DNA from: Candidatus Omnitrophota bacterium
Lineage (GTDB): Bacteria > Omnitrophota > Gorgyraeia > Zapsychrales > JBDRMG01
Assembly: GCA_043812495.1 (NCBI GenBank)
Contig: JBDRMG010000066.1
Span: 1-53,986 of the forward strand
DNA: 53,986 nucleotides
Direction: 5' to 3'
Each line of letters begins with the position of its first letter. Within the stretch, counting starts at the first letter, position 1. Shown in pieces: positions 42,001 to 53,986 of the stretch. The position numbers were made by a program.

Positions 42001-45000
42001 TCGGATGTACCCCAGAAGCTGGCCATAGCCGATATCGTGCGCGAAAAGTTATTTTTTCTTTTGCGCGAAGAAGTTCCGCATTCCGTGGCTGTTGTGGTTG
42101 AGGAGATGATCCAAAGAAAAAAGAAACTTTTGTACATCCGTATCCAAATATTAGTGGAGCGTGACTCTCAGAAAGAAATCGTGATCGGCCAAAATGGGCA
42201 GGTCCTTAAAAAAGCGGGAAGTCTCGCGCGCAAAGAGCTTGAACGGTTACTGCAAAGTAAGATCTATCTGGACCTTCATGTCAAGGCCAAGAAAAAATGG
42301 CGGGATGATATGTCTTTCTTAGGAGAAATGGGGTGTGCCTGAGGGACAGTTGCACATATTTCAAGAAGCAAAAAACGGGGAATCATTTCCCCGTTTTTTT
42401 ATAAATAGAATCACTTATCTTCTTTAAGCAGGCATTAGCGAATTTCTTATATTAAAGGGCAATCTTCAGGACAATTCGTATAATTTTCTCCCCATTTAGG
42501 TTCGCAGATTCCGTTCGGATTGGGACATGTCGGGCAAGAACCGCAATCGCCCGGACAAGTACTGCATGTTTCGCCGTAATCACAAACGTGATTACCGCAG
42601 CACAATCCGCAATCACCCGAACACGTGCTGCAGTTTTCAGATCCGTTACACTGTCCATCTCCGCAATAAGGACACACACCGCAATCCGCAGAACAATTAC
42701 TGCAGGTATCCAAACCATTACAAGTACCGTCGCCGCACACAGGGGGACAATCCAAAGTGCATGTATAGGTTTCTGATTCATCGCATTGGCCGTCACCGCA
42801 CACAATAGGGCATTGACCGCAATCAATTTCACATGTGCCGCAGGACTCAAAAGACTCCTGGCAGATATTGTCACCGCAGAACTGCTCAGGATGATGAACC
42901 CAGTTATTGCGTACAAGCGCGTATTCTTTCGTAAAGCCATCAGAAAGTCCGTAAAAATGTCCGGGCGGCTGTAAATTAGGATTATTCAGGTAATCCGCAT
43001 CATAGACATGAACAGGCTGGTCATACAAAGCCAGCAATTCTTTTGGCGTGCCGGGGTTGGCGTAAGAAAATCCAGTTTCTCGGCAACCCATGGGATCGTT
43101 TAGCCAAGGACTCGGGTCATCCGTAGTATCAACAAAACGTATTTTCACATCTTCGTTATACTGCGCTTGATCGCAGGCACGGGTATTCATGGTTTTTGCA
43201 ACCGGACCCACGGAAGGAAACTCATTGGATAATTGGATAAGGGAGCCGGTGACGACCGCTTCATATTCTACCCAACTATTCTGAGCGGGCGGGCTGGATT
43301 GATCTCCGGGATTCGCAAAGTATTTCCATAGCTCCAAATGATCCAGCTCATCGACGGAAACATAGTTCCCGACTAAAGATATATTATACTGAATCTCATT
43401 TTTGCCGTCTCCATCGGTATCTGATCCGCCTGTAACCGGATGGGCCATTTTCAATTCTGGTTCTTGAGGGCCATCCCACTTGTAATACCAGTACCAATTC
43501 TTACCGTTGACTATATCGTAATTCTTGTCGAGCCCGCGTCCTTCCGGCAAGCCGTCCCATTCCGGGTTCCAAACCGATGTAAATTCATCTTCTCCATAAG
43601 GGTACGAATAATGAAATTGCGGCATCGGGAGATGTTCGGGGAAATCATAATTTTCCGAGAGAAGGTTAATGCGGTTAGATACAAAAGCAGCAGAAGGCTG
43701 TTTGTTATCCGGGGCCGTGTTGTACTTGCCTATCATCGAGAAATCGCCTTGCACATAATACGTAAGTCCGTTCTCCGGCAGACTCTCCGCATTTATAACA
43801 GCCAGGCCAACAGGATACAGTTGAGGTCCGTCAGCCTGATAATCCCAGGCTGCATTCCACTCGTACCCTTTATTGCTCATAACAATCGTGCCGTCCAAGG
43901 GGAGGTAATTTTTTTCCGGGTTTTGGATCTGACATTCTTCCAACCCTTGAATATTTACAACAATTGCTCGATTAATGAGTCCGGTCTTATGATTCATAAA
44001 TCTTTTGAGTTGAACCAAGGGCTCGCTGGTGCAACCTTCATCATCCCATGTATAATTGTTTTCAGAATTCAGAAGAATAATGGTAGGTTCGTTTTGAGCA
44101 TTTATGGAAAAATGTACATCATCTGTATCCTTGTCAGGATAAAAAATCATGCTTCCTCCGGAAACCTGAGCCTCGGACATCATTTGTTCAACAGGAACCG
44201 TAGGCAAGGTGACTTGGCTGACTTCAGAGGATTGGTCAAGAAGGACATCATCCAATCCTACGCTTTCCAGGAAGCTTTGCCATGCATTCTGTTGTGAGTC
44301 GGCAAAAAGAACATTGATCTGGTCTGAGCGGTTAAAATAAGCGTTTACCGGATAAGTATCGGCATCCGGCAAAATCGAAGGAATATAATAACCGCTGGCC
44401 TCACCGGCTTTTTGGATATAGACATTGTCTTGGTAGTAATTTGCATTATTAGCCACGGGATCGGTCATCGCGCAGTTCACGTCCGGGTTACAATTATAGT
44501 TCTGCTCAAGATAGACATATTGTTTTGGATTGTCCTGGTCGGTCCACCAGTTGACCCCATGGGCGCCATCAAGTCCATAACCCGATAAGTAAATATTAAG
44601 GGAAGTTGTGTCTCCCCAAGGCAATATCGGGTTTTGGTTCGCATCACTTTGATTCCACGGAACGACGGATGTGCAGCCGGCATCTTTACAAGCCAGAAGG
44701 CCATAGCGCATACCGGCGATATGGCCGTGATTATGATTCAGATTATTATACAGCGCACCAAAAGGAGTGGTGTTCTCATTGGCAGAAACGAAAGGAGAGA
44801 TCTTTGTTTTGGCCCAGTCTTGGACCGCATCGTCAGGGTATAAAAGCGGATTAAAGGCCCAGTGAAAATTACCGGCCGTTGAAATTTCCGTCGCGTTAAG
44901 GATTTTTGTGCCGGCATTAAAGAAAATATCCCCGTTGGAATGGATTTTGCCCTGCTGGGCATCAATGGACTGCCAGCCGATGGAGACATTACCGGAATAA

Positions 45001-51000: not shown

Positions 51001-53986
51001 AATAATTCCATAGGCCCCCAGCAGGAAAACCAGAGGGAGAACAATCATGAAGGATATGGTGTAGCCTTTTTTCTCAAAATATTTTCGCCAGAACATAGTT
51101 TTTGTCCCTTTTTCCTTTCTTATTCTAAACCGCATGTCGGCGCGCCCAGCTCTCCGGATATATAATCGATGATACGAACGGCGTCGTCAATATCGATTGA
51201 GTCGATGCCGTCCGCATTGCCGTAAGTCAGATCCGGGGCCGGGCCTCCGCGGAAGATATAGTCAAGAAGATAATTGACATCATCGATATCAATCCCTCCG
51301 TCTTCATTGCAGTCTCCGCATTTTTGATTGCCTGCGCATTCTTCGGGGCAATTCAAGGCGTTTTCTCCCACATCGCAATCGCCATCCCCATTACAAGCAT
51401 TCTGGGAGTCGAAGGTATCTTTGCTATTGCGCGGAATAGCCTCTGTCTTAAGATGGATGTCCGCGTCTTTCACAAGACTGCCGGGCGTATCCAAGGCATG
51501 GACCTCGATGGAAAATCGATCGCTGTCTTCCGGCTGGACAAATTCGATATTATCGATGCCGTCGGCTATGACTTTGTTGAATACGGCCTCTTGAGAGTAG
51601 GCCGCATGCTCCGCGCCGGGAAAACAAAATATCACGAAAAATATCCCAGCTACAAGAAGCAGAAGAAACACCTCCCGTGCGCGGTCAAGCCCTTTTTGCG
51701 CGTTATTCTTGTATTGCATGATAATCACCTTCTTTAGTCTCATCTATTTGTATTATTAAAAAAGACCAAACAAATCTAACTTCATAGGCACTCCGGGTTG
51801 TGTCGGCAGTAGTGGCAATTACATGATTCATCCCAATCGCATAAGCCATCGGCATCTGAACATCTATAATTGATCGAAGATGGCGGGTAAGCCGGATTCT
51901 CATAACAAGCGCAATCACTGGTTGCTCGACAGTTTTCTTTTTGTGTTAAGGGAGGACAGCTATAGGTTCCCGTATTATCACAATAGCCATCTCCTAAGCA
52001 ATTTCCTTGCGCAGCACAATAATCGCTTTTACAGGAAGGTTCAGAGGAGTTGCATTTTTCGCCCGTATCGATTTGTCCGTTTCCGCAGCAGTTATTTGGA
52101 TACGGATGAAGGTAGCAATCTGAACACAAAGAGCAATCCTCCGTGCCTTCGGGCCAGGCAGGAGGCTTGTTGCATGTGCCATCTCCGCATGAAAAACACC
52201 AAGGAGCACAGTCAATGCATCCGCAGACGACTTCACCGTTATTAGGTTGCCCGTGCACACCGTCATTGCATGTGCCGTCTCCGCAGCATGGGCTGCAATC
52301 GGCTGTGCATGCAGCGCATCCTTCGGACCAATGGCACTCGCCGTCGCCGCAATAGGGAAAATCCTCATTTTCATTGGATCCGCAGTCCGCCGTACAGTTG
52401 ACTTGACTTTCTCCGATTTGGGCATCGCAGATGCCGTTCGGGCAGCAAGGCCCGCAGTCATAAGGACATGTAAAACAACTTTCATCGTCATCGCACGTTT
52501 CATCTCGACAACAGGGGCTGCAATCGGCGCATATTCCACAGAGTCCTTCACAATCTTCGTCGGGATTAAATCCAGAATCTCCGCATTCAGCAGGAGCTTC
52601 TCCGGGCGAGCCGCAGACGGTTGCTTTGATCAGTTGTTGATTGTCATTGACAAAATACTCATAATAACAATCTTCATTTCCGATTCCTTCCTCATCATAC
52701 GCCCCGTATTTTGTTTTTCCCTCCGGCGTATAGCGGGTGCCAGCGACAGGATCATCATTGACGACGGGAACTTTGATGCTGATGGTTGAGCATCTATTAT
52801 TTCCGAATTCATCTATTTCGCAAATGGATCCCATTGGGCCGCCGCGATAACTGGCCTGGATATCGGACACAATCGGCTCGATCGCAATCGAAAGACGCGT
52901 TGATTTTGTTGCCCGTTCGGTGGAAATGGCCGAGGCGCGGATGCCTTTCTGGCTGACAATGGCAAAGCCCGTTCCCAACGTAACCAGAATAGCGATGGAC
53001 ACAAGCAATTCAGGCAGCGTGTTGGCTCTATTTTTAATCTCTTTGCGTTGATAGCTCATGCTTACTCCAAATAAAGAAACTCATCTGCATGAAAAAGATG
53101 AGCTTGCGATTGTTGGCAGCCAGGCTGTCCCCTTTATTTTCGAGGATCCTTGAGCTTTGTGCCCTGTCCTTACGAACAGTTTACCTTTTTCAACAGATTT
53201 AAATTGTCTATTAAAGAATACCATATAAATGTAATTTATCAATGCACAAGCCGCAGGAACAATAGAAGCGCTTTCTTTGATAGCTTAAAAAGTAAGAAAA
53301 TGAAACATAACCCTTTGTCATCGCAACAACTATGACGAAAAGAGGAAATCTGCTACGAAAAAAGAAATGCAAAAATTGTACGCATCTATTATAAAGAGAA
53401 GGACGGGGTATTGTCTATAGAAAAGATTATATTATCTGGCCGAATGCGAGATTAGTTGAAATATTATAATTTCATTTGCTTGATCCCCCACCCGCCACTG
53501 AATCAATGGCGGGGCCTCTCGCTCATTAACATTCGCTCGAGATAAATTCCGGCAATTGTGTTACGTTCCGTCAATTCGATAAAATCGAATTGACGAGACC
53601 TCGCGAAAATATTAAGAAAAAGACGGGCGTTTCTCTCCGTAACACAAGCCGTCATTTATCGGTCATGCACTTATGTTCTGCCGACTCATCGTCGGCATCC
53701 ATAAGCGCAGACCTCATTAAATAAGATTGCAATAAGAAATTGGCCATGTTAAAATGACAAACAATTTTATTAAAAGACTGCTTTTGAAAAACTTTTCAGA
53801 AATTTTCTAATCCATGATAGACCAAAAAACAGTTAGTGTCCGGCAAATTCAGAAACTTGACCGCCTTGCTATCCAACAGTATAAGATTCCATCGATTATT
53901 CTTATGGAAAATGTCCGCCATTTCGTCCTAGGCGAAATGGCGAGACCTCGTCCGTCCCGCCAATCCACCGAAGGTGGATTGGCGGG

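Follow-up and report, generated by a model that had tools for sequence, protein, structure and literature searches.

The window analysed here, a stretch of 53,986 nucleotides from a Candidatus Omnitrophota genome (contig JBDRMG010000066.1), contains two cassettes on the minus strand. We read each of them, with a probability of roughly 0.6, as a spare J+K tip module of a type IVa pilus, in which the J-class pilin would be split over two genes and which would stand behind a c-di-GMP switch of its own. Six minus-strand ORFs in the order A-B-C were present where the genome-wide survey's note had placed them, and its view of two like cassettes held: A1 and A2 are 37% identical, B1 and B2 34%, and C1 and C2 33%, indicating that the cassettes are homologous. 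The first consists of A1 (51782–53059; 425 aa, 54 Cys), B1 (51120–51719; 199 aa), and C1 (48355–51096; 913 aa), and the second of A2 (46456–47364; 302 aa, 37 Cys), B2 (45569–46318; 249 aa), and C2 (42447–45533; 1028 aa). Dockerin_1 in B2 was the only Pfam match over cut-off among them. An additional ORF at 47556–48002 was rejected as a gene, as it overlies the second aptamer described below and has no Pfam match. A two-way terminator-like hairpin at 42370–42400 closes the locus against a convergent era-like gene. One read contig (run X1) spanned the A2 stop codon and the A2/B2 spacer without differences; the read contigs cover the locus in part and may come from the source samples themselves. 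No locus was confirmed in two metagenome scans, and word-index protein searches returned the window proteins and one relative, nothing else.

By our rough odds for a split J pilin, it is quite probable that A comprises only the first two-thirds of a minor pilin of the PilW/GspJ class, extended by a Cys-repeat tail, and that B carries the missing last strands. The A heads (14 rows) aligned to residues 2–152 of the 212 of plain PilW (13 rows) with a probability of 99.5%. This N-terminal part lies at 52613–53029 in A1, followed by an acidic Cys-repeat tail, and at 46930–47346 in A2, likewise followed by Cys repeats. The B heads (nine rows) aligned collinearly to plain PilW 161–210 (E 0.0015, with a probability of only 16.7%, and of 0.9% against the genome's own single PilW), and to the C-halves of five one-gene forms at 97.9% (E 3e-13). 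The corresponding strands are encoded at 51423–51584 in B1 and 46004–46162 in B2. When a profile of 23 plain PilW C-termini from other genomes was run against 14503 ORFs of this genome, the top matches were three intact pilins, a one-gene form on contig C16, and, at rank 5, B2. B1 alone was weak, with ranks of 60 and 22 among the 14503 ORFs and E values of 45 and 20, which are not significant. A bears a class III signal with Glu5 and a hydrophobic helix, the Glu being invariant in 14 of 14 rows; in A1, the N_methyl match (E 0.073) is under the Pfam cut-off and the cleavage site is non-canonical, with Ala at −1 and Asn at +1.

A and B are two chains: each has a separate ORF and ribosome site, and B has a signal peptide in addition. 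Nine split cassettes were found in four genomes with the order A-B-C kept, and a hydrophobic signal occurs on every B. We rejected a frameshift artefact as the cause of the split because there are nine such cases, each B having its own signal. The fold evidence comes from the one-gene relative in genome G016 rather than from A plus B, the window proteins being tied to it by profiles. Its model (pLDDT 86.4, with only the joint at 158–177 disordered) matched EpsJ (Z 10.4), TTHA1219 (9.5), XcpW (9.2), and GspJ (9.1) at an rmsd of 3.2–3.8 over 119–131 aligned residues. We strongly infer that A and B would bind and fold as one two-chain minor pilin. J precedes K in the cassettes, and the window holds no I gene (PilV/GspI); PilV-like genes occur elsewhere in the genome and adjoining one related cassette (G007:C7). 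The survey's note had described A as a pilin-type fibre subunit with Cys-repeat tails. The link to pilus proteins, the modular build, and the tails of A1 and A2 stood, whereas A appears to be of the tip type, a PilW/GspJ-class minor pilin without its last strands, and the Cys repeats extend to B (one in B1, one on either side of the dockerin in B2) and to C.

The A and B halves are joined in 16 one-gene relatives, all of which carry an A-x-A at the joint behind a short amphipathic-looking segment. All of the first nine one-gene forms had the motif, against a background of 48 in 1167 windows, and so did seven of seven later forms bearing an insert; it was absent in two later forms without the insert, and a stricter helix plus A-x-A pattern was found in only six of the first nine. 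These relatives are not independent of one another. The conserved joint tentatively suggests that the one-gene forms may be cut internally at A-x-A and so reach the same two chains. Relatives carry Hint domains among their cargo, and in G531 an N-half bears a Hint tail and is not followed by a C-half. In the N-half tree, the nine split and three one-gene forms fell into one supported clade (99/93). A quick tree of 28 of the 35 rows rejected neither a single origin of the split (p 0.256) nor a single origin of all joint-bearing forms (p 0.571). A broader proposition appears rather doubtful to us. It holds that in Omnitrophota the J tip pilin was made a two-chain cargo carrier by two routes, gene splitting and an internal amphipathic helix plus A-x-A cut by signal peptidase I in a periplasmic loop without a membrane-spanning signal, and that the halves are exchangeable between cassettes, which would give combinatorial, c-di-GMP-repressed, host-searching tips.

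C had been described as a protein with no known domain, and Pfam indeed gave nothing over cut-off for 30 C relatives. Structure modelling nevertheless allows us to predict with high confidence that C belongs to the PilX/GspK class of cap pilins and contains a beta-solenoid like that of ComZ. The AlphaFold2 model of C1 (pLDDT 80.8) has a helix at 10–70 and matched ComZ (Z 14.9, rmsd 11.1, 352 aligned) and ice-binding solenoids (Z 10.6–10.9). Against GspK, 99 residues spread over 42–863 aligned (Z 8.2, rmsd 2.4), and the solenoid (about 173–843) is inserted before the last strand. The pilin helix of C lacks Glu5, a feature of the PilX/GspK class. The class of C2 rests on its homology to C1 (33% identity over 960 columns); C1 ends in a short Cys tail and C2 in a longer Cys-repeat tail. 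In bulk charge the solenoid regions are acidic, with 95 D+E against 49 K+R in C1 (pI 4.4) and a pI of 4.3 in C2.

The c-di-GMP-I riboswitch reported ahead of the cassettes is real. Aptamer 1 (53112–53195, minus strand) scored 54.3 bits for RF01051 against a gathering score of 35, and has the pocket letters, the GNRA loop, and a G at what we take to be the equivalent of position 20. The ligand rule for c-di-GMP-I aptamers is G20 versus A20; the G011b aptamer also has G at position 20, as judged by eye. Just 5′ of aptamer 1 lies a promoter-like extended −10 (53215–53242, minus strand; 9/12 with TG in a consensus scan). A like −10 box precedes related aptamers, and promoter-like sites are no commoner in the region than in shuffles (23 vs 22.3). 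An intrinsic terminator follows (53069–53103, minus strand), whose left arm and loop can alternatively pair with the aptamer 5′ strand as an antiterminator. The row had been taken to have one switch, but a second aptamer (47626–47950, minus strand) and terminator (47545–47579, minus strand) were found before cassette 2. Because cassette 2 has both of its own, the locus comprises two switched units rather than one row. Aptamer 2 gives no Rfam match at the gathering score and is split in its first arm by a 222-base palindromic, self-closing insert (47689–47910, minus strand), with which set aside the pocket letters, the GNRA loop, and both arms are intact. The insert lies 2 bases from the pocket-forming letters and has a 12-bp closing stem (leader 2 fold z −7.4, for the whole leader); parts of it recur at five other places in the genome (blastn), and a read contig of run X2 runs into an insert-free aptamer exactly at 47911. 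Inserts in that arm occur in 6 of 10 cassette aptamers, with pocket letters kept, and the Rfam gathering score misses 3 of the 10, which means that Rfam thresholds miss some such switches. The reported linkage of riboswitch and cassette in relatives was borne out, with an aptamer and terminator before 10 of the 12 related cassettes read.

Pairing between an aptamer strand and the terminator left arm reached a shuffle P of ≤0.05 in 7 of 10 cassette leaders. In leader 1 it runs through the aptamer 5′ strand (P 0.002), and folding favoured the antiterminator by 3.1 kcal/mol without ligand. In leader 2 the left arm is complementary to the 3′ strand of the aptamer's tetraloop (−15.3 kcal/mol, shuffle P 0.008). 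The pilA leader gave P 0.022, and the pairing was not significant in the G016 and G010b leaders (P 0.088 and 0.060). Pairing of terminators with their own rather than other aptamer strands gave P 0.016 in 16 of 19 leaders, three being unparsed and leader 2 mis-parsed (corrected, −13.8). At equilibrium without ligand, the terminator wins in 10 of 11 full leaders (P 0.90–1.00), so the switch must be kinetic; left-arm pairing before the right arm is made ranged from 0.02 to 0.94 across leaders. We infer that each cassette has its own transcriptional switch, predicted to terminate in the ligand-bound state, as is the one preceding pilA, and it is fairly likely from these models that both cassettes are off at high c-di-GMP. 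The genome encodes 11 GGDEF matches over cut-off.

The equilibrium dominance of the terminator and the closeness of the insert to the pocket would also suit the same protein anatomy with ON switches, or a switch 2 that is dead through its insert, leaving cassette 2 silent or constitutive. In Geobacter metallireducens, a similar aptamer ahead of pilM works as an ON switch (available text of PMC9262584). We nonetheless consider this unlikely: aptamer and terminator lie on separate strands and can coexist, a layout which the same text gives for the OFF switch Cd1, and the cassette aptamers with inserts keep their pocket letters. Type II secretion pseudopilus tips selecting secreted substrates are quite unlikely as an identity for the cassettes. 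In favour of this identity, the J part finds its closest solved structures among secretion pseudopilins, several ATPases of the GspE/PilB type are encoded in the genome, and the same riboswitch class precedes a gspF-gspG-like pair there. However, the J/K ranking is biased because solved J and K structures come mostly from secretion systems, and the closest relative of the plain type is PilW, encoded in the pilA-pilV-pilW-pilX-pilM operon on C26, which has the same class of switch. ComZ, the top structural match of C1, binds DNA (PMC6561018, available text), which would fit a DNA-uptake tip as in Thermus; we find this very unlikely, given that the C solenoid regions are acidic while a ComZ-type receptor would bind DNA through basic residues, that the paralogs have diverged to 33%, and that the same fold caps adhesive cyanobacterial pili (PMC13759059, available text).

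The survey's note had proposed that dockerin-tagged partners are recruited, in other words that free, dockerin-tagged B is recruited by the Cys tails of A, which would itself be a fibre subunit. B2 has a Dockerin_1 domain, a duplicated Ca-binding loop-helix (45743–45904; E 3.8e-6, 27.4 bits vs a 22.9 cut-off), and dockerin loops occur in 8–9 secreted proteins of the genome. Of the dockerins claimed for both B proteins, that of B1 is under the Pfam cut-off, with a sub-threshold match only, to NCBIfam dockerin_GC (E 8e-4). The structural neighbours of B2 in the ESM Atlas were dockerin-bearing clusters (TM 0.3–0.4), and the Atlas gave no usable feature match for the Cys tail or B2. Against recruitment, no cohesin (PF00963) was found in this genome at E 0.1 or in any of five relatives at E 0.01 (genomes 71–96% complete; divergent cohesins could escape), the dockerin is absent from four of nine B proteins while the pilin strands are kept in all, and A and B are fused in the 16 one-gene forms. 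Recruitment is thus hardly probable. The sequences point instead to the dockerin as swappable cargo, and B would be attached by supplying pilin strands. B-type genes get annotated as dockerin proteins standing alone.

Under the split-pilin tip module that we favour, the class III signal of A would take it into the membrane, where it would contribute the long helix and the initial strands of a head of the PilW/GspJ class. B would be exported through its Sec signal peptide and, after cleavage at an A-x-A/S site, add the last four strands. C would very probably form the GspK/PilX-class cap with the solenoid head and its own terminal strand, and consequently no PilY1 would be needed. The I partner (PilV) would come from elsewhere, most simply from the C26 operon. 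The genome has 11 PilB/GspE/PilT-type matches over cut-off, one signal peptidase I, and a PilD-like motif. The split would leave the J subunit two free C-termini, each with swappable cargo, namely disulfide repeats, a dockerin, or, in relatives, Hint, probably for surface or host recognition. As the switches would terminate with ligand bound, the tips would be made at low c-di-GMP. A role of the tips in adhesion, gripping other cells, is plausible and to us somewhat favoured. If true, this provides candidate host-recognition modules and a low-c-di-GMP state for an ultra-small, mostly uncultured, host-dependent phylum.

The survey's note had called the build undescribed. Modular pilins, solenoid cap pilins, and non-cellulosomal Omnitrophota dockerins are published (available texts of PMC10191384, PMC13759059, and PMC10066038), while our search of the literature, mostly open-access texts without supplementary files, turned up neither a split pilin of the J class nor an Omnitrophota riboswitch controlling a pilin, nor an internal cleavage site of this kind. 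The closest published case is the split major pilin of Geobacter sulfurreducens, PilA-N/PilA-C (GSU1496/GSU1497), two adjacent genes, attributed to gene fission, that together give helix and sheet (PMC5174107 and PMC10191384, available texts). In Geobacter the break in the major pilin falls directly behind the helix. In the cassettes it would fall within the sheet of a J-class tip pilin; cargo is attached to each half, and one-gene forms, which include a candidate cleavage site, still exist alongside. If true, an evolutionary series from plain to one-gene with joint to split is preserved in genomes, and the joint motif is a candidate unusual signal-peptidase substrate. Solved PilW/PilJ/GspJ members (EpsJ 2RET, XcpW 3NJE, GspJ 3CI0, TTHA1219 5G23) share the class III signal Glu5, the fold, and the J-before-K order, but each consists of one chain, and none has an internal site for cargo.

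In Thermus ComZ (6QVI; PMC6561018) and the cyanobacterial solenoid PilX (PMC13759059), a beta-solenoid likewise interrupts a pilin of the K class ahead of its last strand, and distinct minor-pilin sets prime distinct pili, as far as the available texts go. C differs from both in being about 300 residues larger, acidic, and Cys-tailed, at 12% identity, and DNA binding is not implied. PilC/PilY1 is a secreted non-pilin chain held at the tip by completing the PilK sheet with 6–10 C-terminal residues (PMC12918778, available text). Here, about 50 N-terminal residues (four strands) would complete J, and K keeps its own last strand; if true, secreted cargo could be anchored to a pilus tip through the J subunit as well as by the terminal strand of PilY1, which adds a second mechanism. 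The modular pilins PilB/PilC of Streptococcus sanguinis carry extra domains on tip pilins (PMC10191384, available text), as one C-terminal module on an intact pilin in contrast to the putative split pilin with cargo on both halves. As described in the available text of PMC9262584, the OFF switch Cd1 similarly combines an aptamer, a separate terminator, and a competing antiterminator; in the cassette leaders, the putative antiterminator mostly uses the tetraloop 3′ strand, and aptamer 2 carries its 222-base insert.

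The genome-wide survey's note placed six ORFs and a riboswitch in this window, and all were found at those positions. The two minus-strand cassettes, each composed of A (the Cys-tail pilin part), B (the signal-peptide 'dockerin protein') and C (913/1028 aa), are old paralogs with 33-37% identity between them. The genome also carries its own plain pilA-pilV-pilW-pilX-pilM row (G000:C26:37800-43165), preceded by a c-di-GMP-I riboswitch (RF01051, 63.4 bits). The alignment of A to the PilW of this row starts at the cleavage site and runs up to the strand that closes with an L-I-R motif, beyond which A continues as Cys repeats. 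A profile comparison of 14 A-type heads with 13 plain PilW sequences covered residues 2-152 of 212 at a probability of 99.5%. The 50 residues following the signal peptide of B aligned to PilW 161-210, the part missing from A (E 0.0015, probability only 16.7%), and B heads matched the C-halves of relatives encoding both halves in one ORF (one-gene forms) at 97.9% by profiles. On this sequence evidence, A and B appear to be the two halves of one J-class (PilW/GspJ) pilin, and B would bind A.

The half-pilin reading was made firmer by this C-half match and by a search of 14503 ORFs of this genome with a profile of 23 plain PilW C-termini, all from other genomes. Three intact pilins ranked at the top, followed by the one-gene form on contig C16 and then B2 (E 0.033), which improved to E 0.00096 when four one-gene C-halves from other orders were added to the profile. 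B1 scored weakly (rank 60, then 22 with the added C-halves), and A1 and A2 gave no match to the PilW C-terminus profile in the same search. The AlphaFold2 model of the one-gene protein from relative G016 (pLDDT 86.4) contained a disordered joint at 158-177 followed by four B-type strands; its best solved matches were J-class (EpsJ, Z 10.4; TTHA1219, 9.5; XcpW, 9.2; GspJ, 9.1), and Foldseek gave the same answer, though at E 0.002-0.02. An assembly error as the cause of the A/B split was ruled out by a ribosome site and hydrophobic signal on each B, and by a read contig, possibly from the source sample, that bridged the A2 stop with no differences.

The A subfamily exceeded 120 bits in 6 of 168 genomes of the order, the 14 genes above this score being those that built the profile, and the next score was 57. 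Nine are split forms (two in this genome, four in G007, two in G010 and one in G006), and five are one-gene forms (two in G011, and one each in G016, G000:C16 and G010:C1). In samples of 401 genomes each from the phylum and the class, further one-gene forms came from other orders, and plain PilW stood before the more distant C relatives. A third PilW of this genome (G000:C16:102472-103395) is one-gene; it contains a single internal Cys repeat as well as the joint motif described below, and is followed by a 960-aa PilX-like gene (G000:C16:98755-101634) with a variant aptamer of altered first arm in front, and the same locus occurs in G010:C1.

The dockerin had been taken earlier as the link between A and B, which our results did not bear out. 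Because the cargo of B varies (dockerin-like in 5/9, Cys repeats only in 2/9, Cys repeats with a Hint-like domain in 2/9), no cohesin was found in this genome or in 5/5 relatives, and Dockerin_1 had zero matches in G006 and G011, the dockerin is cargo on B. Contigs C6, C7, C39 and C64 encode large secreted proteins that carry dockerin-like loops close to the C-terminus, a tag of this lineage for which no cohesin was found. The Cys-repeat and Hint-like cargo of the cassettes and their relatives also occurs on another pilus class, in a Tad-locus pilin-like gene (G000:C22:23109-24533) with 51 Cys in repeats of this type and one Hint-like domain. In L025, L028, L029, L030, L096 and L097, domains that we take to be Hint-like lie on A, on B, or within a one-gene PilW directly before the joint; they could self-cut or splice the chain.

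At the joint, where the halves meet, the motif [AV][FYD]A occurred at most 45 residues before the C-half in 9/9 one-gene forms of the first set, against 48 of 1167 background windows of 40 residues each. A stricter pattern was found in 6/9 one-gene forms, 0/1167 background windows and 0/24 plain PilW. In a later set of 10 further loci (10 of 12 new genes had a locus), the motif stood at the joint in 7/7 insert-bearing one-gene forms and was missing in the two without an insert. Its position is where the signal peptide of B ends. The segment before it is aromatic-rich and not membrane-spanning (best hydropathy 0.26-1.35, versus 2.13-3.42 for 8/9 B signals). Signal peptidase cleavage follows an A-x-A rule, and the genome encodes one signal peptidase I. 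The motif may be left over from re-fusion, or it may be a working internal cleavage site. A function is favoured by its occurrence in several orders in which no split form was seen, and in G016, whose joint has no cargo. Trees give no order of split and fusion events. The B of G006 (L030:10245-11207) has a hydrophobic signal followed by another short segment that closes with A-x-A and resembles a one-gene joint, and the remaining gene of the later set, L128 (G531:C1:51235-51654), is an N-half with a Hint tail and no C-half downstream, either truncated or complemented in trans.

The C1 model, built from a 58-row alignment (pLDDT 80.8, pTM 0.82), matched ComZ (Z 14.9), ice-binding solenoids (10.6-10.9), GspK (8.2) and tapirin domains (7.2-7.6), and on this modelled fold C would be the pilus cap. 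C lacks Glu5 and retains its own last strand, which in a K subunit (PilX/GspK) is the arrangement described for systems without PilY1 (PMC12918778). Cyanobacterial PilX has the same build, and such proteins prime distinct pili (PMC13759059). ComZ binds DNA (PMC6561018), but the acidic heads of C argue against such binding here. C1 matched only 64 representatives among 1.84 billion; one member of the cluster of a C relative is labelled Candidatus Omnitrophota. The literature already describes modular pilins, solenoid caps and tip subunits completed by a strand from another chain, as well as split major pilins (Geobacter; PMC5174107, PMC10191384, PMC9207759). Neither a J-class pilin divided in this way nor a comparable joint motif was found in our incomplete coverage of the literature.

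A second aptamer lies upstream of A2, with a 222-base self-closing insert in its first arm and a terminator like the first one following. Aptamer and terminator were present in 10 of 12 related cassettes, and were lacking in two, of which one is internal and the other has a divergent pilV-like gene as its neighbour. Rfam detects 7 of these 10 aptamers, and 6 carry first-arm inserts. A G at position 20 specifies c-di-GMP rather than cGAMP; since all cassette aptamers have G at the equivalent position, their ligand should be c-di-GMP. GGDEF domains scored above the cut-off 11 times in the genome. In folding predictions, the ligand-free optimum of leader 1 (aptamer plus terminator before cassette 1) was an antiterminator, favoured over the terminator state by 3.1 kcal/mol. 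For 7 of the other 9 leaders, and likewise for the pilA leader, pairing between the left terminator arm and the strand on the 3' side of the GNRA loop was better than in shuffles. The aptamer and the terminator are able to form together, which is also the case in the OFF switch Cd1 (PMC9262584), and both cassette switches are probably OFF with c-di-GMP bound. It counts against this reading that, in 10 of 11 leaders, the terminator is predicted to prevail at equilibrium, so the switching decision must be cotranscriptional.

At low c-di-GMP, the major pilin and spare tip modules would most likely be made; A and C would enter the membrane as prepilins, and exported B would complete A. The I-J-K tip primer would be completed by PilV (I class) from elsewhere, and the extending pilus would bear a solenoid cap, with the disulfide repeats and a dockerin arranged around it. 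Sequence anatomy, conservation and the modelled folds of C1 and the one-gene relative are directly supported; we infer the binding of A to B, the partner PilV, the switch direction and an adhesive role towards a host or prey. The lifestyle of Omnitrophota and their dockerin adhesins are treated in PMC10066038 and bioRxiv 10.1101/2023.11.21.568195; the portion examined of an Omnitrophota-related source (10.64898/2026.06.07.730766) contains no c-di-GMP.

The predicted OFF layout of the C26 pil row switch is the same as that of the cassette leaders. Two further aptamers (G000:C16:89803-89883 and C39:2965-3150) carry hairpin inserts at the same first-arm spot; the latter lies in front of gspF/gspG-like genes, and the best match of its altered strand is to its own terminator arm. 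Variant c-di-GMP-I-GGC aptamers (L098:1233-1319, L099:6652-6739) occur in other orders, where they precede related pilV-pilW-pilX or pilX genes. Within the window, 47400-47540 (terminator 2 to the A2 start) contains more nested palindromes, and loose read ends heap up at 47432-47473, as for a dispersed repeat. The stretch at 48090-48198, between the cassettes, is common to several unrelated contigs and is probably another dispersed element.
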